From positions 6,193-70,192 of the forward strand of contig JAJRTH010000092.1 of the NCBI GenBank assembly GCA_024278375.1: 64,000 nt of DNA. The letters are read 5' to 3'. How positions within the stretch are numbered: the first letter of the stretch is position 1; the number at the start of each line of letters is the position of its first letter. The notes under the pieces were generated by a model. The model was not told the origin of the DNA and did no database searches. It worked only from the letters and a program-made list of their open reading frames with translations. This stretch comes from an archaeon (GTDB taxonomy: Archaea > Thermoplasmatota > Thermoplasmata > WALJ01). Both the position numbers and the translations under genes were made by a program. This document shows positions 14,359 to 55,034 of this stretch, piece after piece.

Positions 14359-14940
14359 TTATCTTTCATTTTTCATTTCGTTCCGTCTCCTGACAGAGAC
14401 TATAAGCATGAGAACAAGCAATGTTGCGAAGATAATCGGAACCAAAAGACTCCCGAACTCAGGAACCGGAGTCGTAGCTGTGAATATCTCGGTTTTGGAG
14501 GTATTCATCTCCGTGTCTCGTGGGTTATTAATAAAGGTTAATCCTGTATAATTTACAGTTATGTTGTAAGGCGTATAGTAAATCTTTGTAGTGCTGTTCT
14601 GCCAGTACTCGGTTAATACTATCCATCTAACATAACCATCCAAATCGGTTGAGAAATTCTTGTCATAGGTTCCGTTCTCATTATCTTTAATTCTAACCTC
14701 TGCGGCAGGAATCGGTGTTCCTTCGGAATCTTCCACATAGACATGGAGATACCAGCGAACTGTTAAATTTCCATAGCTATCGATAGTTATCTTATTTATA
14801 TCAAAACTTGAATTTGTTACTACAAAATATGAGCCTGGACTCCCGACTATCGAAAAATCATATAAATTCATATTTCTTATTGTTGTATTATATATATATG
14901 TACCCTGTAGCTGAGCTAGAAATTCCAAAATTTCCACCAT
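14359..14940 (-). CDS. beta-helix surface protein paralog 1, C-terminal fragment with PEF-CTERM-like anchor
   Basis: Ends ..TATTPVPEFGSLLVPIIFATLLVLMLIVSVRRRN. It has no signal peptide of its own. Its frame continues the upstream fragment across the (TA)n tract. Confidence 0.7.
   Translation of the reverse strand: MVEILEFLAQLQGTYIYNTTIRNMNLYDFSIVGSPGSYFVVTNSSFDINKITIDSYGNLTVRWYLHVYVEDSEGTPIPAAEVRIKDNENGTYDKNFSTDLDGYVRWIVLTEYWQNSTTKIYYTPYNITVNYTGLTFINNPRDTEMNTSKTEIFTATTPVPEFGSLLVPIIFATLLVLMLIVSVRRRNEMKNER
14462..14769 (-). repeat. conserved C-terminal module, copy 1 (about 0.3 kb direct repeat with 16745-17052)
   Basis: The nucleotide and protein alignment with copy 2 is clearly tighter than in the N-terminal halves (TVRWYLHVYVEDSEGTPIPAA..). 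Confidence 0.8.
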
Positions 14941-15175
14941 CCAATGTTACGTTTATCAATGTCGGAGTGGAATACAATGAATATATGGCATCCTCTGTGC
15001 TCCTTAGAACCACGGTATTTTTTATTAATGGAGCACTGTTGTATTCCACCTGAATTCCATCTGCCGTATTGCTCCCCCTCCCGGTATCTGTTATCATATT
15101 ATTGACTATAATAGGATTGCTAGGTCTAGCTGGAGAGTTCCCCCCCACCAGTAACCCATATACCATATGTACCAC
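14888..15175 (-). CDS. beta-helix surface protein paralog 1, middle fragment
   Basis: 95-aa ORF collinear with residues ..PSNPKIVGNVIAH..TLINVTIDG.. of paralog 2. It is bounded by a G7 run and a (TA)5 tract. Confidence 0.65.
   Translation of the reverse strand: MVHMVYGLLVGGNSPARPSNPIIVNNMITDTGRGSNTADGIQVEYNSAPLIKNTVVLRSTEDAIYSLYSTPTLINVTLDGGNFGISSSATGYIYI
14889..14899. repeat. (TA)5T dinucleotide tract at a frame break
   Basis: tatatatatat read directly from the sequence. It is homologous to the tract at 17163-17171. Confidence 0.95.
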
Positions 15176-15866
15176 TGTATGTTATCCAGTTGTTCTCTAT
15201 GGTTCCATTTGACCAGTATCCGGCATAGATTCCAACATCATTCCAAGTTATCGTGTTGTTGGATACGGTGGCATCCGAGCCATAGAGAACGATGCCGTCG
15301 TTGTTGTAGGATATAAGGTTGTGGTCTATGGTAGCGTTGTCGGTTTCGATGTAAAGACCGTAATATGCGGGATTCGGTGCAGGCGGGTCTATCACCCATA
15401 CGCCGATGCCTCCACCGCATCTGTGCAATTCAGAGTTCCTCATCTCGAAGACAGAGCCATCCCTTGCCAGAAATATGAACCTGTAGGAGGTGTTGTTCGT
15501 GGTTATCACAGAGGCATCATAGCTTGTGGTATTGTCGTTATCCCAGTCCAGAATGTGCATCTCTCCTCCAGCCCAGACATCTATCTTCCATTTCTTATCT
15601 GATGAGCAGTTCAGCTTGAGGGTTACATTCCTTAAAATAAGATTTCCTCCAGACTTTATGGTTATGTTTCCATCCGCTATTATCGTGCAGTTCCTGTATT
15701 CTCTGGTATCCGTGACATTCCATGTACCCTGAAAATAGACCGTACCTCCCTCGGGTGGCTGTATCGGGTCGTTCTCAGCCTTGACATTCCCAGAGATGAG
15801 CAGAAACATAGCTATGAAGAGCAGAAACATGACGAGCATTCCCATGAACAACCTGAAGCTTTTCAT
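15126..15866 (-). CDS. beta-helix surface protein paralog 1, N-terminal fragment (signal peptide + PbH1-like repeats)
   Basis: MKSFRLFMGMLVMFLLF.. signal sequence. Repeats NNTITWNDVGIY and IENNWITYSG. The frame ends in the G7 run at 15140-15146. Confidence 0.7.
   Translation of the reverse strand: MKSFRLFMGMLVMFLLFIAMFLLISGNVKAENDPIQPPEGGTVYFQGTWNVTDTREYRNCTIIADGNITIKSGGNLILRNVTLKLNCSSDKKWKIDVWAGGEMHILDWDNDNTTSYDASVITTNNTSYRFIFLARDGSVFEMRNSELHRCGGGIGVWVIDPPAPNPAYYGLYIETDNATIDHNLISYNNDGIVLYGSDATVSNNTITWNDVGIYAGYWSNGTIENNWITYSGTYGIWVTGGGELSS
15140..15146. repeat. C7/G7 homopolymer at a frame break
   Basis: ccccccc on the plus strand. Removing one base joins ..GIWVTGGG to NSPARPSNP... Confidence 0.9.
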
Positions 15867-15908
15867 ATCCTCATCCATACATACACACATGTTAGATAAG
15901 CATTTTCC

Positions 15909-16544
15909 TCATATGTTTCCGACATTCCTTAACTCGACATAGAGCATATTCTCCTTGCCTTCAAACGCCATGAACTTGGGAAAAATGTTCTCAGGATGCT
16001 TCAAATCCTTAGGATTCAGATTAGTATCCACCAGTTCTGGCAGTTCCAGAGGATATGCACCCATATCGCTCATTATTATCGGTGGAGATGTCTCATTCGT
16101 CTCATTGCTTTCGTTTCCAGAACTCACGGGCGGAATTCCGGAAAATTTGGGTCTCTCCGGTAAAGTTATCTTGTCATTCAGAGGTTTCATCGCTTCCTTT
16201 ATCCTATCTATGTCTGGCTTCTCAAAGTGGGCGGGTTTTGGCATCTCCCTCATCGGGTCGAGAGTGATGTTGAGCTCCTTAATCATCGGAAGTGAATCAA
16301 TTGTTATCTCCTTATGCACAAAGCATTTCCCATCTGTGAAATTCAGAGAGATAACATCACCTATAGATGTATTCTCTATTTCCAGATAGTATTTTCCATC
16401 CTCGAACTCAGATACCTTTCCCGTATTTGTGTTCATGTTCTCATAGCCAACGAGAAACCAGCTTGTTGGAACTCCAAATTCATCCTCCACTGTTCCGTAA
16501 ACAGTTAGCATATCGTTGCTTCCTGTCTCTGCTGCTCCCATCAT
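15909..16544 (-). CDS. hypothetical protein between the two beta-helix paralogs
   Basis: 211-aa ORF with no signal peptide and no recognisable motif. Two hairpins lie upstream at about 16575-16625. Confidence 0.4.
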   Translation of the reverse strand: MMGAAETGSNDMLTVYGTVEDEFGVPTSWFLVGYENMNTNTGKVSEFEDGKYYLEIENTSIGDVISLNFTDGKCFVHKEITIDSLPMIKELNITLDPMREMPKPAHFEKPDIDRIKEAMKPLNDKITLPERPKFSGIPPVSSGNESNETNETSPPIIMSDMGAYPLELPELVDTNLNPKDLKHPENIFPKFMAFEGKENMLYVELRNVGNI

Positions 16545-16641: not shown

Positions 16642-17154
16642 TCATTTTCTTTTCCTCCTTTTTTGTTTTATTTTGTTATTTTTCATAAATAAAATGATGA
16701 GAGTGATGGTGATTATTAAAGGAATAAATATCGAATCAAATTCAGGAACCGGAGTTGTAGCTGTGAAAACTTCGGTTTTGGAAACATTCATATCCGTGTC
16801 TCTCGGATTGTTGATAAAGGTTAAGTCTGAGTAATTTACAGTTATGTTATAAGGTGTGTAATAAATTATCGTATCGTTATTTCTCCAGTACTCTTTTATA
16901 ACTATCCATCTCACATAACCATTGGAATCCGTGGTGAAATTCTCGTCATAGGTTCCATTCTCGTTGTCTTTTACTCTCACATCAGCTGCCGGTATCGGTG
17001 TTCCTTCAGAATCCTCCACATAAACGTGGAGATACCAGCGGACTGTCAGGTTGCTGAAACTATTTGATATCCACACTCTGCTTTTATTGAATGTTGTATT
17101 TGCAACTATAAAGTATGAATCAGCTATTGAAAAAACAGTATTCACATTTGACAT
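16642..17154 (-). CDS. beta-helix surface protein paralog 2, C-terminal fragment with PEF-CTERM-like anchor
   Basis: Ends ..TATTPVPEFDSIFIPLIITITLIILFMKNNKIKQKRRKRK. It continues the upstream fragment across the (TA)4 tract. Confidence 0.7.
   Translation of the reverse strand: MSNVNTVFSIADSYFIVANTTFNKSRVWISNSFSNLTVRWYLHVYVEDSEGTPIPAADVRVKDNENGTYDENFTTDSNGYVRWIVIKEYWRNNDTIIYYTPYNITVNYSDLTFINNPRDTDMNVSKTEVFTATTPVPEFDSIFIPLIITITLIILFMKNNKIKQKRRKRK
16745..17052 (-). repeat. conserved C-terminal module, copy 2
   Basis: See 14462-14769. Confidence 0.8.
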
Positions 17155-18125
17155 AGAAGTATTATATATATGTATTTTGTAGAAGAGCTCGCAATCCCAT
17201 AATTCGCCCCATCTATTGTAACATTTATTAGAGTTGGTGTAGAACCGTCAGAAGAATAAACGGCATCTTCCCCAGTGCTAAGAATCTCCGTGTTTTTGAT
17301 TATGGGATTGGATGCGTATGTAATATGGATTCCGTTTCCATATCCAACTCCCAAATCCTGTCCAGTATGAGCAATCACATTCCCAACTATCTTCGGGTTG
17401 CTCGGATGAGTGTTTACATTATCCCATCCATCTACCCATATTCCGTATTTGTAATTCCATGTTATCCAGTTATTTTCTATGGTTGCGTTGGACCACCATG
17501 TCGCCATTATTCCCGTGTCATCATTCCATGTTATCGTGTTGTTGGATACGGTGGCATCCGAGCCATAGAGGACGATGCCGTAAGCATTGCGAGAGATAAG
17601 ATTATGGTCGATTATAGCATTATCCGTCTGAATATACAACCCTGACCAAGACACTATTGCAGGAGTTATTCCGCACCTGTGCAGTTCGGAATTCCTCATC
17701 TCGAAATAGCTCCCATCATCCACCCAGAACAGATATGGATAATTTGAATCCGCAGCGGTCATGTTGCTCGCATCTCCTGTTGTCAGATTGTTATTGTCCA
17801 GATCGAGTATATACATAGAGGCTCCTGATTGAACCTCTATGATGTATTGACCTGCAGATGTGCAGTTCATTATCAGGGTTACATTCCTGAAAGTCAGGGT
17901 TGCATTATTGGAAACCGTTAGATTTCCACTCAAAATGATGGTCTCATTGCTTCTTATAGTATCGGTTGTTATGTCCCAGTCCCCGTTTATGTAGATTTTC
18001 GGCTGAGGATAGGTTATTGACCTCGTGCCCTCGGCATAAAAATTCTCTGATAATGAATTCATAGGTATGACTGCAAAAACCAGCAAGACGACGATTATTC
18101 CCATGATTTTTCCTAGCTTCTTCAT
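17142..18125 (-). CDS. beta-helix surface protein paralog 2, N-terminal fragment (signal peptide + PbH1-like repeats)
   Basis: MKKLGKIMGIIVVLLVF.. signal sequence and NNTITWNDDTGI / IENNWITWNY repeats. The 21-nt start region ATGTATGGATGAGGATATGAA is shared with paralog 1. Confidence 0.7.
   Translation of the reverse strand: MKKLGKIMGIIVVLLVFAVIPMNSLSENFYAEGTRSITYPQPKIYINGDWDITTDTIRSNETIILSGNLTVSNNATLTFRNVTLIMNCTSAGQYIIEVQSGASMYILDLDNNNLTTGDASNMTAADSNYPYLFWVDDGSYFEMRNSELHRCGITPAIVSWSGLYIQTDNAIIDHNLISRNAYGIVLYGSDATVSNNTITWNDDTGIMATWWSNATIENNWITWNYKYGIWVDGWDNVNTHPSNPKIVGNVIAHTGQDLGVGYGNGIHITYASNPIIKNTEILSTGEDAVYSSDGSTPTLINVTIDGANYGIASSSTKYIYIILLCQM
17163..17171. repeat. (TA)4T dinucleotide tract at a frame break
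   Basis: tatatatat read directly. Deleting one TA unit fuses ..SSSTKYIY to NTSMSNVNTVF... Confidence 0.95.
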
Positions 18126-18196
18126 ATCCTCATCCATACATATGCATGCCATGGATAAAGTTTTTGCCCGCAAAAAGGAAAAGGGTCTCGAAGAAC

Positions 18197-20530
18197 TCAT
18201 TTCCTCCTTTTCGCCCATATCACCAGAAATGTCGGCAGTATGAATACCGAGAGCAGGAAGCTGAACAGTATCGATATCGTGGATATCTCCCCGAACTGTC
18301 TCAGCGGAGGCATGGAAGACAGCATAAGGACTCCGAACCCGCCCATCGTCGTTGCGGCGGCACTGAATATGGCACTCCCCGTATGCCTGACAGCGGTCCT
18401 GACCGCCTCTTCGGGAGAGGAGCCGTCAAGTTCTTCCAGGAATCGGTGGGTCAGATGTATCGAATATGTTATTCCGAGCCCTATGGTGAGGGCAGTAATT
18501 GTAACGGTCATCATGTTGAAACCAAGCCCGACCAGATACATCATGCCCATGGACCACAGCAGCGCTATGGCCACCGGAAGGGTGGTTATCAGCCCTATTG
18601 CAAGGACCCTTCTGAGATAATAGAATACCGCCGTCAGGATTATGAGAGATATCGCTAGGGTGATCATCAGAGAATTCCACTGGCTGTTCTGCAGGCTCGT
18701 TGTTATGGTGTAGATGAGTATGGAACCTCCCGTGACCACCGTCTCGTATCCCGCATCTCGGAGCGGTTTCGCATCCTCTCTCAGTTCCGAAAGAAGCACA
18801 GCGTGTTCCGAATTGGATTCTGATGTGCCCTTTATGCGCATAAGAGCGCTCTCATACGTGCCGTTTTCCCTGTACAGCACATACTTCGTCCTTTCGTCGT
18901 GTTCGAAGAGCCAGTCATAGATGCTTGCGATATTGGAATCCGGAAGTCCGTCCCCGTCGCTATCTGCAGAAGCGCCAAGCGCCCTGAAACTCGCGTTTTT
19001 TCCGTAAATGTCCCGTATCACCGTTGTTATGTCCTGCGATTCCGAGAGAGAGACATACCTGTCATCCGCCATCTCCGCTCTCGTGTTCTCTATCGCCCTT
19101 AGGAGTTCGGGAGAGGTCAGATCGCCCTTTATTAGGATGTAACTGTCCTCCATAGCCGAACTCTGGAAGTGCTCCATGATATATGTCATGGTTTCTGCGG
19201 AAATGGAGTTTTCGGGAAGGAAATCGCTCTCACTGAAGTTCGTATCCAGGTTTGTGGCACCGTAGAGGGATGCGAGAGATATAACAATCACTATACCCAG
19301 CACCTTGTATGGATGGTGTTCTGCGCCTATCGCACCCACGGCCAGTATCCTGTTGAGCACCAGCAATCCGCTTTCCGTCCTCTTACCTCTCTCTTTTATC
19401 ACTTCCAGACCCTTCTTTTCCCGTCTCCCGTCAATGATGACCTTGGCGGAGGGTATGAAGGTGAGATTGATGATAAAGGCCGAAAATATGCCGAAGGCAT
19501 TCATAATACCGAAGTCTCTGAGCGGAGGGATCGGTGATGATATGTTGGAGAGAAAGGAAACTATGGTGGTCACAGTGGTCAGTATGAGGGCCATGCCAAG
19601 GTGCGCTTCCATGGAGATCGTCGCTTTTTTCACATCCTTTCCGGCCCTTATCTCCTCCCTGTATCTCATTATGGTATGTATTGCGTAGTCTATCCCCAGA
19701 CCGACTATCAGGACGGCAACGGTTGTGCTTATCTGATTGAAGGTCATGTTCGCCATCACACCGAAGCCGTAGGTCCATATTATAGCCATGAAGAGCCCAA
19801 TAAGACCCAGCAAAGTATCAAGAAAGGACCTGAAAATGACCAGAAGAATCAATATGACCAGGATGAACACCACCGGAAGTAGAACCTTCGATGTCTCGTC
19901 CATAGTCTCTTTCATGTCTTCGTCCATCAGTCTCAGGCTCATGACAAGGTATTCGCCGCCACCATCAAAGGAATCGGCAATGCCCTTGATTTTCAGGTGA
20001 ATTCTCACCATCCTGTCCGAGAACTCCTTGTCGCCCTCACCCGCCTTTTGCGTACCGTTTAGATTTATAATCATAAGAGAAGCGCTAGCCTCGGGCACGG
20101 CAGGGTCAAAGTCCTCGGAAATCATCTTCTTCATCTGTTCCTTTGCCGCCGATATTGACGAGGGGTCCATCGAGGCGATCATGGTTTCGAGGTTCGACCC
20201 CATTTCGGAAAAATTCTGTGACATGGAGGAAAACGTCGCATATGCTTCGGTGAATGTCATGTTCACGGTGGTATTTGAATATACAGGCACGGTGCCCAGG
20301 CAGTCATCGATTTTCAAGGACAGGGAAATGCTATATGCGGATAGGTCGGAACTCAGTTTGGACAGGGCCGCAGCGGAACTCTGAAACTCCCTTCCAAGTT
20401 CCATGAACTCTGCGCTATCCATGGGAGTGCCGTATCTGAGTATGTTGTCTATCTCTTCCAGACTCATGTTTTCCAGATGGGATATCTTATCGTCCGCGGA
20501 CATTTCCGAGGAAAACGCCGGAGGGCTCAT
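18197..20530 (-). CDS. RND-superfamily (MMPL/HAE3-like) exporter, TM2-TM12 portion
   Basis: 777 aa with two 5-6-helix bundles separated by a large loop and a GLGIDYAIH motif. It lacks TM1, which lies in the upstream same-frame ORF. Confidence 0.75.
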   Translation of the reverse strand: MSPPAFSSEMSADDKISHLENMSLEEIDNILRYGTPMDSAEFMELGREFQSSAAALSKLSSDLSAYSISLSLKIDDCLGTVPVYSNTTVNMTFTEAYATFSSMSQNFSEMGSNLETMIASMDPSSISAAKEQMKKMISEDFDPAVPEASASLMIINLNGTQKAGEGDKEFSDRMVRIHLKIKGIADSFDGGGEYLVMSLRLMDEDMKETMDETSKVLLPVVFILVILILLVIFRSFLDTLLGLIGLFMAIIWTYGFGVMANMTFNQISTTVAVLIVGLGIDYAIHTIMRYREEIRAGKDVKKATISMEAHLGMALILTTVTTIVSFLSNISSPIPPLRDFGIMNAFGIFSAFIINLTFIPSAKVIIDGRREKKGLEVIKERGKRTESGLLVLNRILAVGAIGAEHHPYKVLGIVIVISLASLYGATNLDTNFSESDFLPENSISAETMTYIMEHFQSSAMEDSYILIKGDLTSPELLRAIENTRAEMADDRYVSLSESQDITTVIRDIYGKNASFRALGASADSDGDGLPDSNIASIYDWLFEHDERTKYVLYRENGTYESALMRIKGTSESNSEHAVLLSELREDAKPLRDAGYETVVTGGSILIYTITTSLQNSQWNSLMITLAISLIILTAVFYYLRRVLAIGLITTLPVAIALLWSMGMMYLVGLGFNMMTVTITALTIGLGITYSIHLTHRFLEELDGSSPEEAVRTAVRHTGSAIFSAAATTMGGFGVLMLSSMPPLRQFGEISTISILFSFLLSVFILPTFLVIWAKRRK

Positions 20531-20554
20531 CTCGAACCCTGAATTCCCGCTGTA

Positions 20555-21121
20555 TTAGAGAAACGAGTCCAGAGCCACATATGCCATATCCAAGCCGGCA
20601 CTGACATTTTCCGCCGAGGCGTTCGAATTGTAGAGAAGAAGATAATTGGATAACAGGTAGTCGATGCCGGAAAACGATGCGTTCAGCGCCTCCATCTCTT
20701 TTGTTGCGTTTATGACCCGCTGCATGAACTCCGCATACGCCTTGCCGCCCATGTCCATCATCACGACCATGTCCGCAACACTAAAAACGCTGTTTTCCGG
20801 ATTTTTAGGGGTTTGCAGAGCCTCGGATAGCTCTCTGTCCGCCAGGATCTCCTTTTCCAATCTCAGTTGTTCCAAGAGAGCCTCCTTGGTCAGGACATTG
20901 TCGTCTTTCACGACTATCTGGACCATCTCCACCCCTCCATATGTATCCTGGATTTCGGTGTATGCCCTCGAAATCTCATCATCGGGCATGAAACTGTGAA
21001 AATCTGAGGTCATACTCATCTGAGAGGCATAGGAACCGAATATGATGGTGATCAGGATGATGGTCGCTATGACCTTTCCCGGATTTTTCGCAACCGCTTT
21101 TCCGAACGTCTCCGTATTCAT
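20555..21121 (-). CDS. RND-superfamily exporter, N-terminal portion (TM1 + start of the first extracytoplasmic loop)
   Basis: MNTETFGKAVAKNPGKVIATIILITIIFGSY... It is in the same frame as 18197-20530 and separated from it by a single TAA (20555-20557). Confidence 0.65.
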   Translation of the reverse strand: MNTETFGKAVAKNPGKVIATIILITIIFGSYASQMSMTSDFHSFMPDDEISRAYTEIQDTYGGVEMVQIVVKDDNVLTKEALLEQLRLEKEILADRELSEALQTPKNPENSVFSVADMVVMMDMGGKAYAEFMQRVINATKEMEALNASFSGIDYLLSNYLLLYNSNASAENVSAGLDMAYVALDSFL

Positions 21122-21485
21122 ATGATCGGCCCCGCAAAGACGGCTTTGTATATAATAATTTGCTCCTAACAAATGGATTCTATCAAAAAATGTGTCATTC
21201 ATCCATTCAGAATGGGCAAAATAGCAAATTTTAAGTACTATGTGTCCATGAGACGCCTATGAACCTCACCACAATGGAAAAAAGGTCCTTCTGGGATATC
21301 TACGCAATCCCGATGCCGAGGCCAGGGAACTGGCGGATATTCTGGATATAAACTTCTGGAGCGTTCTTAAAGCCAGAAAAAGACTGCTGGACTTCGGGAT
21401 ACTGAGATTCGCCCTCATACCGAACCTCGGAAGAATCGGTGCGGAGATAATATTCTCCGGCTTCGGCTCGGTCAAGAACTCAGGT

Positions 21486-26309: not shown

Positions 26310-26879
26310 GTGAAATCCCACATAAGAGTCCTCGGTATAGACGACGGACCCTTCGATTTCGGTGATGACAGGGCAATTTTCGCAGGAATCCTTATCAGAC
26401 TGCCTTCCTATATGGAAGCGGTTTCACTCGAGACCGTGGAGGTCGACGGCAAGGACTCCACCGAAAGGATATGTGAAATGGTGGTCAGTAACTGATGGCA
26501 ACATCTGTTACATGCGATACTGATAGATGGTGCGGCCCTCGGGGGATTCAACATCGTCGATCTGAAAGCTCTCAGCAAGAAAACAGGGATTCCGTCGATA
26601 ACGGTCACATCCGAGAGACCCGACATGGAATCGATAAAAGAGGCTCTGAAGGGGCATTTCTTCCGGTGGGAAGGGAGATATGCAATGCTTGAAAGGAGGG
26701 GGCTCCACGAGATACGGGTCGAGGAAGGTACGGTATATATTTCGTTCGAGGGCACCGACCTGAAAAATGCCATTGAGATTGTGAGAAAGAGCATAATCAG
26801 GGGTCTTAGGCCGGAACCTGTCCGGATGGCCCATATGGTGGCGAGAGCGTGTGCAGAACTCCGCTCGGAGGGCTTTTAG
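26310..26879 (+). pseudogene. DUF99/UPF0215 (EndoV-like) protein interrupted by an in-frame TGA
   Basis: GTG start, then MKSHIRVLGIDDGPF... The ORF reads ..EMVVSN-TGA-WQHLLHAILIDGAALGGFNIVD.. in one frame, with the stop at 26493-26495. It ends with TAG at 26877-26879. Confidence 0.7.
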
Positions 26880-27382: not shown

Positions 27383-27460
27383 GAATACGAAGAGAACAGG
27401 AGGCAGTATCTCGCGTACTGGGTCGCCTATGACATCACGGAATCCCTAATCGAACAGGAA

Positions 27461-44655: not shown

Positions 44656-45150
44656 CTAGGCCATAATCCACAGTTCCATTAAAGAAGTAAGAAGACTTTT
44701 TATGCCGCTAAGTAAGTTAATAGCTTGTTCAATTATCCACTCCAAAAGCCAGCTCAGTGCATCCATAAACGAATTCCATGCTTTTTGTAATGCTCCCGCA
44801 ACAGCATTCCAGATATCTCTCACGAAGTCAAGGACACCGGCGAACAATCCTTTTACCGTGTGATCGTATCTGAGTCCGTTTCCTGCAATGTCCTCCGCTT
44901 TTAGATGGACGATGTATTCTTCCAGACCTGAGCCGAATCCTATGTCAAGGGTCGTGTTGAACCATCCGTTGTGATGCACAGAGCATGATATTTCCGCATA
45001 GAACGACCATACGCTGTTATCCGCATGAAACCCAGGAGTTCCACCGATTTCAAGATGGAATCCGGCATTGTTTTCAGCTACGAGAGACTCCGGGAAAATT
45101 CTTGCCGATGGAAAACAAATAGGGTTCTCCGCCATCCTGTCCTGAAACAT
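44656..45150 (-). CDS. hypothetical protein (low-GC region next to the tRNA)
   Basis: 164-aa ORF with no recognisable family. Ends at an in-frame TAG. Confidence 0.35.
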   Translation of the reverse strand: MFQDRMAENPICFPSARIFPESLVAENNAGFHLEIGGTPGFHADNSVWSFYAEISCSVHHNGWFNTTLDIGFGSGLEEYIVHLKAEDIAGNGLRYDHTVKGLFAGVLDFVRDIWNAVAGALQKAWNSFMDALSWLLEWIIEQAINLLSGIKSLLTSLMELWIMA

Positions 45151-45257
45151 GCCTGGAAGAATATAATCTGCATATTTAATCTTTATCTCGATGTGGTAAA
45201 TGTGGTCCCCTATTCAGGCCAGAGAGATGCACAGAACCTCTGCCACCCGGAAGGATG

Positions 45258-45332
45258 CGGACCCGGGGGGATTCGAACCCCCGTCCCCGGCTCCGAAGGC
45301 CGGAAGGATGATCCAGGCTACCCTACAGGCCC
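45258..45332 (-). tRNA. tRNA-Arg (anticodon UCG)
   Basis: Hand-folded cloverleaf: acceptor GGGCCTG/CGGGTCC, anticodon stem CCGGC/GCCGG with loop CTTCGGA, T-arm GGGGG-TTCGAAT-CCCCC, discriminator G. CCA is not encoded. Confidence 0.8.
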
Positions 45333-47148: not shown

Positions 47149-47323
47149 ATAAAGTTATGGCGGCAGAAAAAAGAATTGTGATTGGAGAATTTTTTCCTCC
47201 GAGGTGTTCTAAAAGGTGTGAATGCATCCTATATATACCTATCGCAGAAGTTAAACACATGTACCGAAAATCTTAAATAAACCCAGACGAAATGAGCAGC
47301 AGAAAAACATGGAGGTTTTTAAA

Positions 47324-48346
47324 ATGAAAAAAGGAATCCAGATCGGATTGATATGGGCCGTCGCATTCCTCCTTCTCTTCCCTGTGGGGAATGTGATGGC
47401 CGTGGATGTGCAGAGCGCCAACGACACCAGTACGACAATAAGCTGTGTCGTACAGACAGGTTCACCAGTTATAAACGACGTGAAATTCATGGACAGTAGC
47501 TGGACATTGAGGAATAACACTCAGATAGATGTCCTGCAGACCTACTACTTCGTTGTGGACGTCACTCAGGACGCAGGATGGGTGAACATAACCTATGTGA
47601 ACATAACCCTGTCCTTCGATTTCGGAGATGATTCCGACATCAAACCCTATGTCGGGACCAACAACACGCAGTTCAGACTCGTTTATGAGAACACCACCGG
47701 AACAGCTTCATTCGGTCTTGCATCCGCAGGAAACGGTGAAGTCACCTTTGTTGCCGGTACGGAGACCTATGTGAACGATACCACAAGGATTCTCAACTTC
47801 TCGTTCACACCGCAGAACGAGATAAGACATGCCACCGGTGCCGGTACGGGAGGTCTCGGCTTCAATGACCTCTATTCCTGGAACTATAGGGTAAATGCTA
47901 CGAATAATGACGGGCTCGTATCTTCGAACTGGGATGATGAATTCGGAGTTTACAGATATACCAGCATATCCGCGTCCGGAGACCCCACAGGAAGCGGCAA
48001 TCCCGGTCAAACCGTAACGCTCTCCCCGTCAACCACGGTAACGTTCAGCGCTAACGAGGAGTTCAATCTGAGCGTTAGCATAAGCGATCTTACCAGCGGT
48101 ACGAACACAATAGCCGCGACGAATGTGGAAGTTCTCGGCGGGAACATAGCCGCATATACCGCGTTTGGCGGTGCTGGCGTCGTCCAGTGGATATATGGCG
48201 GTGCTGGAAGCTGGCAGGCTCCTTATGACACATACAACCCGTCATTGGACCATCAGGTGCAGACCGATTGGAGAGTGAACATACCGTTCGGTACTCCTAC
48301 GGGAACATACAGCTCGCCGGTGACCTACACGATAGAAGTGAACTAA
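47324..48346 (+). CDS. secreted protein carrying the shared beta-rich module X
   Basis: ATG 47324 after GGAGG. Signal peptide ..FPVGNVMA/VDV. About 300 aa are collinear with the C-terminus of 52950-55034 (..DEFGVYRYTSISASGDP.. versus ..DEFGIYRFTSVSASGNP..). Confidence 0.65.
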   Translation: MKKGIQIGLIWAVAFLLLFPVGNVMAVDVQSANDTSTTISCVVQTGSPVINDVKFMDSSWTLRNNTQIDVLQTYYFVVDVTQDAGWVNITYVNITLSFDFGDDSDIKPYVGTNNTQFRLVYENTTGTASFGLASAGNGEVTFVAGTETYVNDTTRILNFSFTPQNEIRHATGAGTGGLGFNDLYSWNYRVNATNNDGLVSSNWDDEFGVYRYTSISASGDPTGSGNPGQTVTLSPSTTVTFSANEEFNLSVSISDLTSGTNTIAATNVEVLGGNIAAYTAFGGAGVVQWIYGGAGSWQAPYDTYNPSLDHQVQTDWRVNIPFGTPTGTYSSPVTYTIEVN

Positions 48347-48380
48347 CCCCAATCCCCTTCCCTCTTCTGAGGGGAAAACG

Positions 48381-49760
48381 ATGAGAACCCTTTCCACATC
48401 GCTATCGCTAGCGTTGATAGCATTCACACTATCGAGCATCTTCATACCTTCGGGTAGCGGAGCCTCCATCCAGAGTTTTGATCTGCATATGGTCGGAGAG
48501 GCCGCTTTAAAGGATTCTGAGGGCAGATACAGAATGGTCGCAGGGATATGGCACCAATTTGATATCTATCTGGACACGAGTGCGGATGTCGTGGAGATAG
48601 AGATGCGGTACGGAGATTTTACGGACTGGGACACCACCAACCACTACCGTTGGCTTTATTCGGCGGGCAACTGGAGCGATGCGGAATATGGAATATATAT
48701 CGAACAGGATAAATGCGACAGAACTGGGACCCTTTACTCCTTTATAGTGGGTGTGGACGGAAAGGTTAATTACGGTTTGTGGAACCTGACGGTAAGGGCG
48801 GACGGAGAGGAGATATATGCATCGGAGATATATGTGGAAAAAGCTGTCGTAGGCGCTGATTTTCACTCGGCGGATTTTCTGCTGTGGGCGGTACCATTTA
48901 CCGCAGGAACGATAGACTCTGCGGATAAAATGCAGTATATTAGGATAGTGAATGGGGGCAATACACCGTTGTATTATAATATCACCTTCTCGGCCTTTTC
49001 AGATAGGATAAACCTCACGGGAGATGACGAGGTAATACACGTCGGTGGAGAGACCGTTCGGTACATCAGATTCGGGACGGATTCATGGAGCCCCAGAGTC
49101 ATAAAAATAAAGGGCAGGATAAATGTAGGGGCTATGTACAGGATACCTACGGCCAGTACAGCCACGCTTATAACAGGGGTCGGCTCAACATTTCCCTTAA
49201 CGATATATATCGGACATTCCGGATATGAGATACTGGAGAAAGACGGCCTGACAATCCAGATAAAGAGACGCATATCTTTGGACTATGGTGCGGAATCCGA
49301 GCTGAAAATCTTTTTAACAGGAAACGGTACTGCTATGGTGAACATACGCGGAGAAAACTGTACGATAGAGGAGATTATTTACAGGGGAGAAAAGAGAAAT
49401 CCTCCTTTTCCGGTGGTCCTGTCCGAGGAATTCGAGACAAACATAACGATAAGAATACGAGCGGACACCCCCGATGTCATAGCGAAGGTAATATACCTGA
49501 TAGAATATGGGGGAAAGGACAACATATACTCCACTGATGTAGAGGTCGGGCCAGCACCTCCTCCGGAGCCTGTACCACCGCAGGAGCCAGACAAAACCTT
49601 GGCTGCGGCCTTCATCATAGGAGCAGCGGCATTAGCTACTGCATACATAATGTTGACACATAAAAAGGCGGCGGATGAAGTGAAAAGGAAGGGCATTGAG
49701 GATGCGAGCGAGAAAAGACCAAGACGCACAAAAAAGAAGAGGGGAGGAGATAAGAGATGA
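48381..49760 (+). CDS. secreted protein with C-terminal TM anchor and basic tail
   Basis: Signal peptide. A P-rich stalk (PAPPPEPVPPQEPD) is followed by the helix AAAFIIGAAALATAYIML and then KKAADEVKRKG..KKKRGGDKR. Confidence 0.6.
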   Translation: MRTLSTSLSLALIAFTLSSIFIPSGSGASIQSFDLHMVGEAALKDSEGRYRMVAGIWHQFDIYLDTSADVVEIEMRYGDFTDWDTTNHYRWLYSAGNWSDAEYGIYIEQDKCDRTGTLYSFIVGVDGKVNYGLWNLTVRADGEEIYASEIYVEKAVVGADFHSADFLLWAVPFTAGTIDSADKMQYIRIVNGGNTPLYYNITFSAFSDRINLTGDDEVIHVGGETVRYIRFGTDSWSPRVIKIKGRINVGAMYRIPTASTATLITGVGSTFPLTIYIGHSGYEILEKDGLTIQIKRRISLDYGAESELKIFLTGNGTAMVNIRGENCTIEEIIYRGEKRNPPFPVVLSEEFETNITIRIRADTPDVIAKVIYLIEYGGKDNIYSTDVEVGPAPPPEPVPPQEPDKTLAAAFIIGAAALATAYIMLTHKKAADEVKRKGIEDASEKRPRRTKKKRGGDKR

Positions 49761-50422
49761 GGGGGAGGGCTATTCTGGCAATCTTTGCAATTTCCATGAT
49801 TCTCGTGGTGACCAATCCCGGAATCACAAAGGCAAACCCTGATGCCACTGGCGTATCCGTTCTGAACGTGGATCCCACGATCTCCTACATACACTTCTCG
49901 TCTTCCGACGGCATCCACATGGTACAGGTCACGGTTTCGGACTACAACTCATGGATGGATGTATATCGTATAACTGTGGAGTTCAGGGGAGAAAAAGGAC
50001 CTATAAGTGTGATAACATACACTCAGTATTCAGATAGAGCCAACATGACAACGAGAGTGGACTGGTTCAATGAGACATACGGTCACTACCTGATGGAGTC
50101 GAAATCTGGAATCGTGAGGGTATCCAACGGCACTACGGTGTCAGAAAAGTGCGAGATGAATGTGACCTTCGCTTTCAGACCGATAGAGGCAAGAAAAGTC
50201 GTTGTTACCGTGGAAGACCTGGAAGGCAGTATAGCCAGGGCAAGGGTGGATTATCCCCCCTTGTTCGGTTTTCCGATGGAAGAGGAGCCGATATCTACCG
50301 ATCTGATAGCCGTTGTTCTCTCTGTGTTCGGCACGGCAGGAGGAATAAAGCTGAAATACGGCTCATTCAAGAAGCCGATAAAGAATCTCAAGAATGGTGT
50401 CAAGGAGGTGAGTAAGAGATGA
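49757..50422 (+). CDS. secreted/anchored protein with an N-terminal X-like subdomain
   Basis: ATGA overlap with the upstream gene. Signal peptide, ..VTVSDYNSWMDVYRITVEF.., and a C-terminal hydrophobic segment. Confidence 0.55.
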   Translation: MRGRAILAIFAISMILVVTNPGITKANPDATGVSVLNVDPTISYIHFSSSDGIHMVQVTVSDYNSWMDVYRITVEFRGEKGPISVITYTQYSDRANMTTRVDWFNETYGHYLMESKSGIVRVSNGTTVSEKCEMNVTFAFRPIEARKVVVTVEDLEGSIARARVDYPPLFGFPMEEEPISTDLIAVVLSVFGTAGGIKLKYGSFKKPIKNLKNGVKEVSKR

Positions 50423-51324
50423 ACGGGAGGGACAAACTATCGATAATACCGTTCACGTTCTTTTTCTTCCTAGGACTGTATGTGGTAATAAAATTCTTCC
50501 TGGTCCTGTTCTGGACGCTCAACTTCAATACCAAGATAATCCTGGAACTTACACCTTTCTTCCTGTTCGGAATGAACCCGGTCCAGTTGCTTGTTCTGTC
50601 AGCCATCGTGGCCGGTTCTGATGCATATTTCCATTTCAAGAATCACGGTTGGAACATCGTGATATCCTTCGTGCCGACCGTCATAATGCTTATCGGCATA
50701 GGTGCCGCGATATATGCCAGCGAGTGGAACAATCCCTTTTACTATACGCTCTTCGCAATAATGCTGGGTGTCACCATCGTTGACCATCGATATCTCCTGA
50801 AGATAAACGGATATATCAGAGAGGAGGAGGGCGAAGAAGAGGTCGAAACGGTCGAAGAGGCTGCCGAGGAGGGCGCTGAGGAAGAATGGGAGGAGATAAC
50901 TCCTGCCGAAGAGGTCTCGGAGGTCGAGGTAGAGGAAGTAAGCGTAGCTCCGGAGGAAGAGAGGGAGATTGAGGAGATACTGGAGGCCGAGAAGATAGAG
51001 GAAGAACTGAGAGAGATGCCGGAAGAGGAAAGGGAGCACCTCGAAGAGGTGCCCGAGATACCGAAAGATATGATAGGCAAAATAGAGAGGCATGAAATCG
51101 CTGCCAGGGAAGAGGAAAAGGTCGAGCCCAAGACCGAGCCTGCGGAGATGTCCAAAGAGGAGAGGGAAAAGACCATAGAGGAGCTGCTCGAAGAACTGCT
51201 GGAAGCCACCGGTAAAAAGAGGGAGATGGAGAAAGGGAAGGAATGCCCGATATGCGGGGCCATGAACTCTATGGATGCCAAATACTGTAAGGAATGCGGT
51301 TCCGAACTGGAGGAGGGGGCATGA
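50419..51324 (+). CDS. polytopic membrane protein with poly-Glu linker and C-terminal zinc ribbon
   Basis: About 4 TM helices, about 130 aa of E-rich low complexity, then CPICGAMNSMDAKYCKECG. ATGA overlaps on both sides. Confidence 0.6.
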   Translation: MNGRDKLSIIPFTFFFFLGLYVVIKFFLVLFWTLNFNTKIILELTPFFLFGMNPVQLLVLSAIVAGSDAYFHFKNHGWNIVISFVPTVIMLIGIGAAIYASEWNNPFYYTLFAIMLGVTIVDHRYLLKINGYIREEEGEEEVETVEEAAEEGAEEEWEEITPAEEVSEVEVEEVSVAPEEEREIEEILEAEKIEEELREMPEEEREHLEEVPEIPKDMIGKIERHEIAAREEEKVEPKTEPAEMSKEEREKTIEELLEELLEATGKKREMEKGKECPICGAMNSMDAKYCKECGSELEEGA

Positions 51325-52928
51325 AAAAGGTGGCGATGTTCCTCACTGCCCTGATGCTCATATCCGCCATACCCATGGCAGGCGGCGATACGCTGTTCAC
51401 ATTCGTCGACGGTTCCGGTACGGATTCTTCCCAGTTCGGGTTCAATGTCACTTATCTGGGCGATATCAACGGGGACGGCTACGATGATGTGGCTGTCGGA
51501 GCACCCTACAACGACAGCGCGGACGGTAGCAGGCCTGACTGCGGAGCGGTTTACATATTCTTTGGATATCCGAATATGGACATATTCCATGGGAACAATA
51601 TAGATATAGGGAGCGCCAACGTTACGATATACGGTGCGACGACAGGCGATTATTTCGGATGGAGCGTGGCGTACGGCGGCAACATCGACGGTTCCGGCGG
51701 AAGCATAATCATCGGTGCACCGGATAACGACACCGCTGATGGCAGCAAACCGAGCGCAGGTGCAGTCTATATATTCAATTCCACAGCATTCGTATCCTCT
51801 GGAAAGACCTATTCGGCAACCGATGCCAACTACACCATATATGGCGAGCAGAACTATACCAGATTCGGATTCTCCATCTCGGGAGGAGCGAATATAGACG
51901 GTCTGCTGTATGACGATTTCGTTGTCGGAGCCCCTGGAAAGGTGTATTTCTACGACAATATGGAATATTCCGACAGTCCAGGCGGTGCCACCACGCCTTA
52001 TCATGGGTGGACACATTATGGGAGCGGATTGACAGATGAATGGGAACACGGTACACCCTCGAACAGCGATAACGATGCGGATTCGGATGATTTTGGCCCT
52101 TATTCTGCATATTCGGGAAAATATTGCTGGGCTACAGATTTGGATAACGATTACTCTCTAGGAAGTTCGTTGAGCGACTTTATGGCTCTAAACACAACAG
52201 ATATCGACCTAACCGATTCTATGTATCCTCATCTGACATTTTACGATTGGCTCGAGATTGAGGGGGGCTCATATGATTACTGCAATATAAGCATATACAG
52301 GAGTTCGGATGACACGCTACTTCTAACTCTCGAGGCAGATTACGATGACACTCATGCTTGGCAAAAAAACGTATACAACATCTCGGCGGTTGCGGGAGAG
52401 ATAATATATGTGCAGTTCGCCCTTCATTCTGATTCCACGGTTGCCTATGCCGGCTGGTACATAGACGATGTAATGGTATATGAGAACAAAACCGGGAAAG
52501 CCTATGTTTTCTACGGTGATGGCTCGCTACCAGGGAGTGCTTCCAATGCCGATGTCGTGCTTCACGAGGGCAGAGGTAGCGAACTTTTCGGCTACTCTGT
52601 TTCCACAGGAGATGATTTGAACGGAGACGGATATGATGACATAGCAATAGGTTCTCCAGGATATGATTTCTTCAGGGGCAAGGTATCTGTTTATTACGGC
52701 GGACAGCTGGACCCTCAGGTTTATTTTCATGATGGCTTCGATGACGGAGTGTTCAATGGATGGGCCGCAGGCGGTGCTGCCACCGTCTCCATAAGCAGTA
52801 CGGTATATCATTCCGCACCGTATTCTCTTTTAATATCGGCAAGTGCGACAACAGCCACATACATCACAAAAACGATGTATTGCCGAAATGTCTCTAACCC
52901 CGTGATGTCGCTTTGGTGGAATCCGTAG
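51321..52928 (+). CDS. FG-GAP repeat (integrin-alpha-like) surface protein, part 1
   Basis: Signal peptide MKKVAMFLTALMLISAIPMAGG. Repeats FG.S/NV...GD(I/L)NGDGYDD..(V/I)GAP...GAVYIF. An inserted jelly-roll-like domain (WYIDDVMVYE). Ends at TAG 52926-52928 inside a second jelly-roll-like domain. Confidence 0.7.
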   Translation: MKKVAMFLTALMLISAIPMAGGDTLFTFVDGSGTDSSQFGFNVTYLGDINGDGYDDVAVGAPYNDSADGSRPDCGAVYIFFGYPNMDIFHGNNIDIGSANVTIYGATTGDYFGWSVAYGGNIDGSGGSIIIGAPDNDTADGSKPSAGAVYIFNSTAFVSSGKTYSATDANYTIYGEQNYTRFGFSISGGANIDGLLYDDFVVGAPGKVYFYDNMEYSDSPGGATTPYHGWTHYGSGLTDEWEHGTPSNSDNDADSDDFGPYSAYSGKYCWATDLDNDYSLGSSLSDFMALNTTDIDLTDSMYPHLTFYDWLEIEGGSYDYCNISIYRSSDDTLLLTLEADYDDTHAWQKNVYNISAVAGEIIYVQFALHSDSTVAYAGWYIDDVMVYENKTGKAYVFYGDGSLPGSASNADVVLHEGRGSELFGYSVSTGDDLNGDGYDDIAIGSPGYDFFRGKVSVYYGGQLDPQVYFHDGFDDGVFNGWAAGGAATVSISSTVYHSAPYSLLISASATTATYITKTMYCRNVSNPVMSLWWNP

Positions 52929-52949
52929 GGAGATATAGCGAGGATATAC

Positions 52950-55034
52950 ATGCGCGATGACAATGAGGGCTCGTATTATCTTATAAGAGAGAGCACTGCC
53001 ACGGCATGGGAACAGGTCACGGTAGACCTGTCCAAAGAAGCGGCAGGCTACGGATTTGACCTTTCTGACGGATTGTGGATAGTCATTGGTGTGTGGACCG
53101 GTAATGGAGACATATATGTGGACGACATAAACCTAACTGGCATCCGAAGTACGGTATATTACGGCGAGAACGCAGGAAAAGGGCAGGAAAAGGGAGACGC
53201 CTTCGGTTCTTCCGTTGAAATCTCAGGAGATATGAACGGAGACGGCAGAGGCGAACTGGTTGTCGGTGCACCCAACGGCGGTCAGACAGAGGGAAGGGCC
53301 AAGATATACTACGGTCGTAGCATCCAGGAGCCTTCTGTCACTACATCCAAATACGGAGGGTTCATAATAGAATCGGATGGTTATGTTTGGGGGGCCCAGG
53401 CCTTCGTCCCAAAGGAGGATATAACCCTTGTTGCCATAGAACTCCAGATAAGATCCAGAGATGACTGTGCAGGGAAGGCATATGTGCGAATAAACGCCAC
53501 AAGCGGAAATCTCCCTGGCTCTGTCGTCGTCAGTTCCGTGGAATCCTTCCATGCACCGAGAACATTGCCGGCAGTATGGGTAAGAGTGGAATTTTCCGCC
53601 CCGGCAAAGCTATCTGCCGGAACGAGATATTGGATAGTGGTGAATACCTCAGATGCCTTCGGTTACCTCTGGTATTCCGACAATGGAGGCATATATTCGG
53701 ACGGAAGGTTCATAACCAATGGTGCGACCGTCCAGACCGGCGAAAACGCCACATTCCTTCTGCATTTCGAGGCCAATGTAACTCTCAACGGTACGCGGGC
53801 AGGCGACAGATTCGGTTATTCGGTATCCTGGGCGGATATGGACGGAGACGGCTATAACGACACGATTGTCGGCGCTCCATACAACGACACCGCATCCGGT
53901 ACACTTGCGGATGCCGGAGCCATCTATGTTTTCAGAGGGGGGCCCACAATGCAGAGCTACATCTCCGCTTCCAGTGCCGATTACATAAATTACAGTACAT
54001 CTGCGGGAGCCCACTTCGGATTCTCCGTTTCGAAAGCAGGAGATGTCAACGGAGACGGGTTCAATGATGTCATAGCAGGTTCACCCGCATACGCCATCGA
54101 TTCGGGTAAGGCGGAGATACTCTCATGCAAAAAACCACCGAATATTGTGGACTATGACCTGCTGGATTCCTCCGGAGCCTCAAGGTTGAACCAACAGATA
54201 GATGTCAATGCGGAGTATCATTTCATAGTCAATATCACTCATCCGAATGGGTGGCAGTATGTGGATTATGTGAGGGTAAGGGCATGGTATGACTTCGGGA
54301 GCGAGGCCACCGCATACAATGATACCAAAGGCGGAAACATAAACCTGTTTATTGAGTACGAGAACACTACCGGAACAGGAATCTTCAAACTCCTGTGGCC
54401 GACCGGAGGAGAGGTCGTCCTCGGAACCTGCTCCGACACAGTGATAAATTCCACGACATATTCCCTCGATTTCAACTTCACACCCATGTATCAGTTCAGA
54501 TATGCGCCCGGAGACGGAGTGTGGGATGCGGGACCGGGATTCAATGATGCGAATTCCTGGAATTTCGAAATAAACGTCACCGACTCCAGCGGGTGGTACG
54601 ATTCCGTGAAGGACGAGTTCGGCATATATCGCTTCACCTCGGTATCCGCCAGCGGAAACCCGTCGGTAACCGGATACCCAGGCTTTACATACGCTATGAC
54701 TCCCTCGACGATCGTCACATACAGTTCCAATGCCGACTTTCACATGAACGTCTCTCTTGTAGACGATTTGTGGAATGCCGGTAACACGGCCAGCATAGCT
54801 GCCAGAAACGTCGCCATAAACTGGACCGGCCATGTGCCCGATTCCTATGTGTCGTTCGCCGGGTCAGGCTCTGCAAATGCCATATGGATAATAGGAGATT
54901 CGGCCACACTGGTATCAGCACCTCTCAACGACACCTCTCAGAGCATAACCGTTTACTGGCAGATAACAATACCGGCAGGCACGATAGCAGATACATACAG
55001 CGCCACCGTCAATTACACCATATCTCAAACATAG
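52950..55034 (+). CDS. FG-GAP repeat surface protein, part 2, with C-terminal module X
   Basis: Same frame as part 1. Completes the split domain (..GDIYVDDINLTG). More FG-GAP repeats (GDMNGDGRGELVVGAP, DMDGDGYNDTIVGAP, GDVNGDGFNDVIAGSP), then module X. Confidence 0.7.
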   Translation: MRDDNEGSYYLIRESTATAWEQVTVDLSKEAAGYGFDLSDGLWIVIGVWTGNGDIYVDDINLTGIRSTVYYGENAGKGQEKGDAFGSSVEISGDMNGDGRGELVVGAPNGGQTEGRAKIYYGRSIQEPSVTTSKYGGFIIESDGYVWGAQAFVPKEDITLVAIELQIRSRDDCAGKAYVRINATSGNLPGSVVVSSVESFHAPRTLPAVWVRVEFSAPAKLSAGTRYWIVVNTSDAFGYLWYSDNGGIYSDGRFITNGATVQTGENATFLLHFEANVTLNGTRAGDRFGYSVSWADMDGDGYNDTIVGAPYNDTASGTLADAGAIYVFRGGPTMQSYISASSADYINYSTSAGAHFGFSVSKAGDVNGDGFNDVIAGSPAYAIDSGKAEILSCKKPPNIVDYDLLDSSGASRLNQQIDVNAEYHFIVNITHPNGWQYVDYVRVRAWYDFGSEATAYNDTKGGNINLFIEYENTTGTGIFKLLWPTGGEVVLGTCSDTVINSTTYSLDFNFTPMYQFRYAPGDGVWDAGPGFNDANSWNFEINVTDSSGWYDSVKDEFGIYRFTSVSASGNPSVTGYPGFTYAMTPSTIVTYSSNADFHMNVSLVDDLWNAGNTASIAARNVAINWTGHVPDSYVSFAGSGSANAIWIIGDSATLVSAPLNDTSQSITVYWQITIPAGTIADTYSATVNYTISQT

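Follow-up and report, generated by a model that had tools for sequence, protein, structure and literature searches.

The window, which is the whole 64,000-nucleotide stretch analysed here, carries between positions 14359 and 55034 a tandem pair of NosD-like genes, an MMPL/RND transporter gene, an Endo_dU/DUF99 gene, a GNAT acetyltransferase gene and an FG-GAP surface protein gene, each interrupted in the assembled sequence. It belongs to a 1.42-Mb metagenome-assembled genome of an uncultured Thermoplasmata-related archaeon. Nine lesions, five in-frame stops and four frameshifts, had been listed in the initial annotation. Seven of them were confirmed in the sequence, the exceptions being the TAG at 44656 and the A6 run at 21278. 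The sites are as follows.

14889-14899, minus strand: (TA)5 tract in NosD-like paralogue B (14359-15890), frameshifted; one unit short of (AT)6
15140-15146, minus strand: G7 run (C7 on the plus strand), a second frameshift in paralogue B; one extra G compared with every homologue
17163-17171, minus strand: (TA)4 tract in NosD-like paralogue A (16642-18218), frameshifted; two units short of (AT)6
20555-20557, minus strand: in-frame TAA in the MMPL/RND transporter gene (974 aa; 18197-21121); Leu TTA or Gln CAA in relatives
21278-21283, intergenic: A6 run upstream of the MMPL start; not a frameshift
26493-26495, plus strand: in-frame TGA in the Endo_dU/DUF99 gene (about 26310-26879); Gly GGA or Arg in relatives
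27380-27382, plus strand: in-frame TAA in the 284-aa GNAT acetyltransferase gene (about 26891-27745); Glu or Gly in relatives
44656-44658, minus strand: TAG ending a 164-aa orphan ORF beside tRNA-Arg; unconfirmed as a lesion
52926-52928, plus strand: in-frame TAG in the 1238-aa FG-GAP surface protein gene (51294-55034); CAG (Gln) in the closest relative

Comparison with close relatives showed that four of the five stops stand at sense codons of otherwise continuous genes. The MMPL/RND orthologues in four genomes (G003, G004, G005 and G006) are continuous across the site of the TAA at 20555. The TGA at 26493 splits a single Endo_dU/DUF99 domain, with Pfam profile positions 2-59 and 66-181 on either side, and the gene is uninterrupted in all relatives. 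The GNAT gene is uninterrupted in six relatives, and the FG-GAP orthologue in G003 (91% identity) has CAG at the site of the TAG at 52926, which makes it the one clear case of C>T. The two TA tracts and the G7 run were likewise confirmed as frameshifts by homologues that stay in frame.

For the TAG at 44656, no homologue of the 85 codons past the stop was found among 5.8 billion proteins, and the site is spanned by one relative only, which is 30% identical; this TAG may be a normal terminator. The A6 run at 21278 proved to be non-coding. The 97-aa ORF upstream of it scores negative for coding potential, each of the three frames is closed by stops between this ORF and the MMPL start, and the MMPL relatives align from MNTETF at 21121.

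Genome-wide distribution of in-frame stops

Exact 141-bp overlaps are common to dozens of contig ends, indicating a short-read de Bruijn assembly with k=141. The longest contigs reach 74 kb, which is an argument against very low coverage. The genome is 91% complete, and a second population is present within the bin (contig C87 versus C2). An exact-protein look-up for an independent assembly of the same species gave no match, the nearest protein among 5.8 billion being 76% identical.

An intrinsic coding-score scan alone yielded 179-204 candidate stops. Because these were mostly normal in-frame neighbouring genes, 61-aa junction peptides joined into two 2623-aa queries were searched against five relatives. 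One candidate, the in-frame TAG at C75:12663, was rejected as a conserved, normal stop between trmI-like and gatD-like genes. The resulting total of 26 is a lower bound, since it covers candidates with at least 6 codons between the stop and the next start codon (109 others had fewer), and the catalogue is biased to conserved genes because validation requires conserved relatives.

At least 22 in-frame stops besides those of the window were identified throughout the genome at sites that are sense codons in relatives of the same genus or family. The four window stops and 21 others are sense, and never stop, in up to five such genomes, and the 22nd case was recognized through the second population, AcnX and RpoA' reading GAG in contig C87 and TAG in C2. 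The stops are private to this assembly, none of the sites being a stop in any relative. The genes cut include those for RNA polymerase A', the DNA polymerase D (PolD) large subunit, aIF2-gamma and RadA, and in all four a single NCBIfam match spans the stop, as it does for dihydroorotase, spermidine synthase and an Obg-type GTPase.

The density of lesions had been described as unusually high, which is true with respect to a healthy genome and not within this one. The lesions over the contigs fit uniform scatter (p 0.90) and their positions along the contigs are uniform (KS p 0.82); a contig bearing four or more lesions (p 0.14) and the cluster of three window stops within 6.9 kb (scan p 0.11) are compatible with this. 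Neither the ends of contigs nor any individual contigs were enriched in stops. The window is not special, and essential genes and all genome regions are struck alike, showing no filter of selection, as an artefact would leave them.

One option in the initial annotation was a lineage undergoing pseudogenisation. In that case reductive evolution would have left young, ordinary pseudogenes, gathered in envelope and accessory genes that the cell can spare. Within the window, surface and transport proteins indeed account for five of the seven confirmed lesions, and the small genome (1.4 Mb) and the intact third NosD-like paralogue at C43 agree with such decay. Genome-wide, in contrast, core information-processing genes are struck as often as accessory ones. 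Indispensable genes are not spared, the same type of stop cutting the polymerase, initiation-factor and RadA genes of core replication, transcription and translation. Furthermore, nearly every affected gene has a single lesion, the frameshifts and deletions usual in decaying genomes are rare here, and relatives of similar size carry none of these stops. We therefore consider pseudogenisation very unlikely.

Substitution spectrum and origin of the stops

G:C>T:A transversions (Glu GAR>TAR, Gly GGA>TGA and Ser TCR>TAR) account for 21 of the 23 stops that could be assigned, while the share expected from codon usage is 41.5% (binomial p 9e-7). The residues replaced, as itemised for this class, are 15 Glu, 3 Gly and 4 Ser. 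The per-site rates are alike for GAG, GAA, GGA and TCR (2.5-7.4e-4), and those of all other routes to a stop are more than 10 times lower. No sequence motif was found in the context of the G>T sites. The MMPL and FG-GAP stops of the window fall outside the class, and no TAC>TAA stop was seen where about 2.5 were expected under the C>A class; both observations count against an artefact. As a set, the window stops belong to the single-base G:C>T:A changes that are scattered over the whole genome and private to this assembly.

Read-through or recoding of the stops (Pyl at UAG, UAR as Glu, UGA as Gly, or leaky termination) would leave the genes functional. The pattern of replacement has some appeal for this explanation, TAG and TAA mostly replacing Glu and all three TGA replacing Gly of the relatives. 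The same codons, however, also replace conserved Ser (PolD, RadA, HAD and a TPR protein) and Gln; the sites being Glu, Ser, Gln, Leu or Gly in relatives, no single meaning fits, and one mutational class explains all the replaced residues. All three codons still terminate genes: long ORFs end with TGA in 357 cases, TAA in 226 and TAG in 134, and the normal terminators cited in the initial annotation (TAG at 23678 and 26877, TGA at 2976 and TAA at 4606) were verified, in agreement with its view that wholesale reassignment is unlikely. The best match to PylS (TIGR02367) scored 35.7 bits against a cut-off of 178, the Methanosarcina control being positive, and none of the 39 tRNAs detected by ARAGORN in the 91%-complete genome has a stop-reading anticodon (CUA, UUA or UCA). 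The stops are absent from genomes of the same genus, and they number only about 26 against about 62,000 susceptible codons. Recoding is thus unlikely and largely refuted, and we regard it as scarcely credible. Both recoding and ordinary pseudogenisation are unlikely because all three stop codons still terminate genes and neither PylS nor a suppressor tRNA was found. Regulated read-through or phase variation focused on envelope genes, as had also been proposed, fits the stops poorly: over the genome as a whole they show no preference for envelope genes, they are private, and they replace Glu, Gly and Ser alike.

Among the three options of the initial annotation, consensus error fits best. Internal-stop 'pseudogenes' follow assembly error and coverage (PMC11017572), and C>A/G>T artefacts arise from oxidative damage (PMC3616734; bioRxiv 10.1101/070334). 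The probable source of such base errors is guanine oxidised in the template, or G>T miscalling where the effective depth of template was low; the errors would then be fixed in the k=141 short-read contigs and become visible as broken genes only where GAR, GGA or TCR turns into TAR or TGA. For a damaged base to become the consensus, few template molecules must have been sampled, for instance after amplification or with high duplication, which is assumed here. The living cell itself would have intact genes. Most likely, these changes are not alleles that a living population inherits, and the stop codons reflect artefacts of the sequence and not biology. The whole reading, in which the stops are genome-wide, selection-blind G:C>T:A base errors fixed in the contigs and the frameshifts are separate and probably real, we hold to be probable with some reserve.

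The same spectrum might instead reflect genuine alleles, produced in vivo when the population sampled, or a cell line that is polyploid, underwent heavy oxidative G:C>T:A mutagenesis; the nonsense alleles would be recent or unfixed, and intact copies or rare read-through would sustain the essential functions. This spectrum is that of 8-oxoguanine, which is active in vivo too, many euryarchaea are polyploid, and the length of the contigs points to a reasonable depth. AGOG, a family of archaeal 8-oxoG glycosylases, was undetected in this genome, and equally so in the relatives, which are without the stops. With no AGOG signal from the genome, the relatives or the controls, the search is uninformative on a loss of AGOG as a mutator cause. 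A viable clone cannot have fixed nonsense changes in RNA polymerase A', PolD and aIF2-gamma, unfixed variants would normally be expected to give way to the majority path during de Bruijn assembly, and the scatter bears no sign of purifying selection. Genuine alleles are therefore rather unlikely. There is only a very small chance of the far-reaching version, in which a hydrothermal Thermoplasmata population under extreme oxidative mutagenesis carries genuine stops, those in RNA polymerase, DNA polymerase D and aIF2-gamma included, survives by polyploid heterozygosity or efficient nonsense suppression, and has in its (TA)n tracts the first archaeal slipped-strand switches of surface proteins. 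If the stops were real, such nonsense tolerance in essential archaeal genes would be remarkable.

The G:C>T:A changes occur at a rate of about 3.5e-4 per susceptible G/C site, which extrapolates to roughly 240 in 1.42 Mb. Under the preferred reading as base errors, the assembly would carry these as damage-type errors of concern for quality control, and annotation would turn at least 26 genes (2% or more) into pseudogenes or split proteins. Even when no reads are used, an artefact can be distinguished from biology by combining the codon in relatives, the substitution class compared with the codon-usage expectation, and the presence of essential genes among those struck.

Repeat tracts in the tandem NosD-like genes

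The initial annotation had spoken of lesions of every kind. Lesions of different types do occur, and two phenomena had been merged, the genome-wide G:C>T:A scatter and a local set of three repeat-tract indels. The indels lie in NosD-like paralogues A and B, PEF-CTERM-type beta-helix surface proteins that are secreted and C-terminally anchored and whose orthologues are single ORFs of about 500 aa. The (TA)5 and (TA)4 tracts occupy the homologous site of the two paralogues, where the orthologue in G001 has an in-frame (AT)6 encoding YIYIY. At the site of the G7 run in paralogue B the homologues have G5-6.

Indels are rare in the rest of the genome. Of the 41 G/C runs with a length of at least 7, about 36 are embedded well within long ORFs that remain intact, and so are about 8 of the 10 TA tracts in coding sequence that measure at least 9 nt. 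A strict frameshift scan of the whole genome gave 3 candidates; the three frameshifts already recognised in the window escaped it, the codon usage there being atypical, and the rarity of indels leans mainly on the intact repeat tracts because the scan is insensitive. Since indels are rare genome-wide, the three window frameshifts are a separate, local and probably genuine slippage phenomenon. They probably represent true slipped-strand alleles, reflecting either decay or on/off switching of both NosD-like genes. The tandem gene pair broken at a shared TA tract is the only part of the data with possible biological content, as had been foreseen for the TA-tract polymorphism.

For these frameshifts, phase variation can be proposed only tentatively, and we think it unlikely. 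The (TA)n tracts and the G run would act as slipped-strand switches toggling the tandem surface proteins. The unit number of the tract sets the frame, (AT)4 and (AT)5 being out and (AT)6 being in; neither paralogue is in frame at the homologous tract, one having 4 units and the other 5, the orthologue carries the in-frame (AT)6, and the affected proteins are anchored at the surface. Similar tracts are intact elsewhere in the genome, which makes a general indel artefact unlikely. On the other hand, 4 of the 6 homologues have an interrupted tract, as seen in other orthologues and in the intact paralogue, so that it is not conserved as a repeat, the two independent frameshifts in paralogue B look more like decay, and tract-length polymorphism is not observable in a single assembly. 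An efficient switch would usually need more than 4-6 units. To our knowledge, a slipped-strand contingency mechanism has not been established in archaea.

Comparison with known systems

Bacterial simple-sequence contingency loci of Neisseria, Haemophilus and Campylobacter, with poly-G or dinucleotide repeats, likewise have their tracts within surface-protein genes, and paralogues here differ in unit number and frame state as in those loci. In contrast to them, the tracts here are short, not kept as repeats in the orthologues, and seen in one assembly only.

Ambiguous or reassigned stops, as in Pyl-decoding archaea or the UGA = Gly code (NCBI table 25), resemble the present case in having in-frame TAG or TGA in conserved genes, and the TGA here likewise aligns with Gly. 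Unlike in those systems, the search for PylS and suppressor tRNAs was negative, genes still end at these codons, several residues are replaced, and the stops are not common to congeners.

The errors derived from OxoG and other DNA damage (Costello et al. 2013, PMC3616734; Chen et al., bioRxiv 10.1101/070334) belong to the same substitution class as the stops described here, and both are indifferent to gene function and position and private to one data set. When sequencing is deep, the classical OxoG artefact is seen at a low fraction of alleles and is marked by read-orientation asymmetry, whereas here the changes sit in the consensus and the class was assigned from the assembled sequence. The spurious internal-stop 'pseudogenes' of Cooley and Wright (2024, PMC11017572) likewise show an excess of stops in conserved genes of draft assemblies, with the relatives intact. 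Those genomes were from isolates, whereas the present one is a metagenome-assembled genome with no second assembly, and the strong G:C>T:A skew is an additional feature of the present case.

In-frame stops in the window

The five stop codons and four repeat tracts listed as gene disruptions in the initial annotation were all found at their positions in the sequence, and each was compared with as many as six genomes of the same genus or family. Four of the stops interrupt the following genes.

18197-21121, minus strand: MMPL/RND transporter gene, TAA at 20555
about 26310-26879, plus strand: Endo_dU (DUF99) gene, TGA at 26493
about 26891-27745, plus strand: GNAT gene, TAA at 27380
51294-55034, plus strand: FG-GAP gene, TAG at 52926

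The TGA breaks a single Endo_dU domain (profile positions 2-59 and 66-181), which is uninterrupted in all 25 matching relatives, with Gly or Arg at the site. The transporter is one ORF of 980-1040 aa in relatives (Leu, Gln or Ala at the stop), the 284-aa GNAT protein is unbroken in six relatives (Glu, Gly or Ala), and the 1238-aa FG-GAP protein has CAG at the corresponding codon of the relative G003 (91% identity). The fifth stop, TAG at 44656 (minus strand), could not be confirmed as a lesion, being spanned by a single 30%-identical match only; the 85 codons beyond it matched nothing among 5.8 billion proteins.

In another family-level relative, the GNAT orthologue (L041, G017:C65:46560-47405) has an in-frame TAA of its own, at a different site that is Ser or Glu in others, indicating that private internal stops also occur in other metagenome-assembled genomes (MAGs) of the group. 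The FG-GAP surface-protein locus (47309-55034) is 90-91% identical to G003:C147, and the housekeeping genes of the two genomes share only 71-85% identity at the protein level; recent exchange between the two species may have taken place at this locus. Beside tRNA-Arg (45257-45332), in a region of low G+C (42%), the first 77 codons (44920-45150, minus strand) of an orphan ORF are 91% identical to C84:13284-13514, where they are fused to a different C-terminus; the arrangement resembles a repeated module located at an integration site.

Repeat tracts in the NosD-like gene pair

Three of the four repeat tracts lie in two tandem NosD-like beta-helix genes.

14359-15890, minus strand: gene B, (TA)5 at 14889 and G7 at 15140
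16642-18218, minus strand: gene A, (TA)4 at 17163

All three are frameshifts, as had been proposed. The TA tracts occupy the homologous position in the two genes: in the G001 orthologue the tract is (AT)6 and encodes YIYIY, and with four units in gene A and five in gene B both are out of frame. G7 contains a single G in excess of every homologue. Each of the NosD-like orthologues, like a third paralogue on contig C43, is encoded by one ORF of about 500 aa. The fourth tract, A6 at 21278, turned out not to be a lesion: the upstream ORF is non-coding by score, stops occur in every frame before the MMPL start, and the alignments with relatives begin at their residue 1, at 21121. A 211-aa ORF without a Pfam match (15909-16544, minus strand) lies between the two paralogues.

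The assembly has few indels: of 41 G/C runs of at least 7, about 36 are situated deep within intact long ORFs, as are about 8 of the 10 coding TA tracts of 9-10 nt, and a strict genome-wide frameshift scan gave three candidates. The presence of three repeat-tract indels inside 2.3 kb of one tandem gene pair, with the homologous TA tract hit in both genes, therefore points to genuine slippage there. Redundant copies may be decaying, as the third paralogue is intact; the two independent frameshifts in gene B and the interruption of the tract in other orthologues favour this, and on/off switching is less likely. On C82, 516-codon and 366-codon ORFs overlap by 13 codons at a stop at 3904 (minus strand), with no start for 62 codons, which may reflect a frameshift outside any repeat within one long gene.

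Genome-wide distribution and substitution class of private stops

With a codon model trained on long ORFs, every stop with coding sequence on either side was listed, giving 204 candidates, 95 of them without a start codon within six codons. Junction peptides (86, each of 61 aa) were joined into two queries and searched against five relatives, with positive and negative controls as expected. About 36 junctions were ordinary neighbouring genes, because the stop is present in relatives too, and 21 junctions outside the window had a sense codon in relatives and were read straight through. In-frame neighbours can imitate internal stops: the TAG at C75:12663, conserved in frame in four genomes, proved to be the normal terminator separating gatD from a TrmI-like tRNA methyltransferase gene. 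One further case, AcnX, came from comparison of contigs C2 and C87. There are thus at least 26 private stops including the window's four, about one per 55 kb, and their positions fit a uniform distribution both among contigs (p 0.90) and within them (KS p 0.82); three stops in 6.9 kb of the window have a scan probability of 0.11. Most of the lesions that had suggested an unusually dense region are real, but the density belongs to the assembly, not to this region or to envelope genes.

A single NCBIfam profile match spans the stop in RNA polymerase subunit A', DNA polymerase II (PolD) large subunit, aIF2-gamma, RadA, dihydroorotase, spermidine synthase, an Obg-type GTPase and a HAD hydrolase. 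Null alleles of the first three cannot be compatible with a viable organism, and ordinary pseudogenisation, one of the options offered initially, is contradicted as an explanation of the set.

The aligned codon was read from the DNA of the best relatives at each site, leaving out three sites aligned to distant paralogues only. Glu GAR was replaced by TAG or TAA in 15 cases (AcnX counted), Gly GGA by TGA in 3 of 3 TGA cases and Ser TCR by TAG or TAA in 4, all by G>T, or C>A on the opposite strand; the sole exceptions among assignable stops are FG-GAP (CAG>TAG) and MMPL (TTA or CAA>TAA). The G:C>T:A class makes up 21 of 23 stops, against 41.5% of nonsense routes expected from the genome's codon usage (p 9e-7); no stop had arisen by the Lys, Tyr, Trp or AGA routes, which together account for about half of those expected. 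Per-site rates are alike for GAG, GAA, GGA and TCR (2.5-7.4e-4) and more than 10 times lower for all else. All Glu, Gly and Ser replacements are accounted for by one mutational class, and by no decoding rule.

Read-through, amber read-through included, or reassignment was rejected, since each of the three stop codons terminates hundreds of long ORFs (which bears out the initial dismissal of wholesale reassignment), no stop-reading tRNA was found in the 91%-complete genome by ARAGORN, the best PylS score, 36 bits, was below the cut-off of 178 (a Methanosarcina control passes), and no private stop is common to any congener genome compared.

Assembly structure and origin of the stops

The window comes from contig C78 (6193-70192) of a genome that spans 1.42 Mb on 95 contigs (G+C 48%, 91% complete, 6% contamination). 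Genes for HdrA, KaiC-like proteins, ribosomal proteins S24e/S27ae and Spt4 are indicative of an archaeon; among named records the closest are MAGs from hydrothermal sites labelled 'Thermoplasmata archaeon', and identity to Methanomassiliicoccales is about 50-58%. Dozens of contig ends, involving most contigs, share exact overlaps of 141 bp or slightly less, for example:

C2:1-141 = C51:9088-9228, exact
C78:74330-74438 (the window's contig) = C8:8426-8534, exact

These are the signature of de Bruijn assembly at k=141 from short reads: the contigs end at branch points of the graph, where strains or repeats fork. Roughly 40 kb of the bin is duplicated at 82-90% nucleotide identity (C2 and C87, C62 and C64, C72 and C79, C74 and C24, C84 and C70), indicating a co-binned second, related population, in agreement with the contamination estimate. 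C87 is 85% identical to C2 across 21 kb; RpoA' and AcnX are intact in C87 and carry TAG in C2.

The stops are most likely damage-derived or G>T miscall errors, which would produce the selection-blind, uniform, assembly-private G:C>T:A scatter. Extrapolation gives about 240 changes (0.017% of bases), a load within the range that metagenome assemblies can carry. This reading presupposes few effective template molecules, since contigs this long suggest decent depth. The main rival is true oxidative mutagenesis in vivo, its alleles being unfixed or heterozygous; it is considered unlikely.

The initial observation was largely correct and its biological readings are unsupported. With the TA-tract gene pair as a small residue of possible interest, the finding is best classed as an assembly-quality issue. 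The G:C>T:A class is exactly what oxidative damage in sample or library handling gives (PMC3616734; bioRxiv 10.1101/070334), and internal stops in excess are a recognised proxy of assembly error (PMC11017572).
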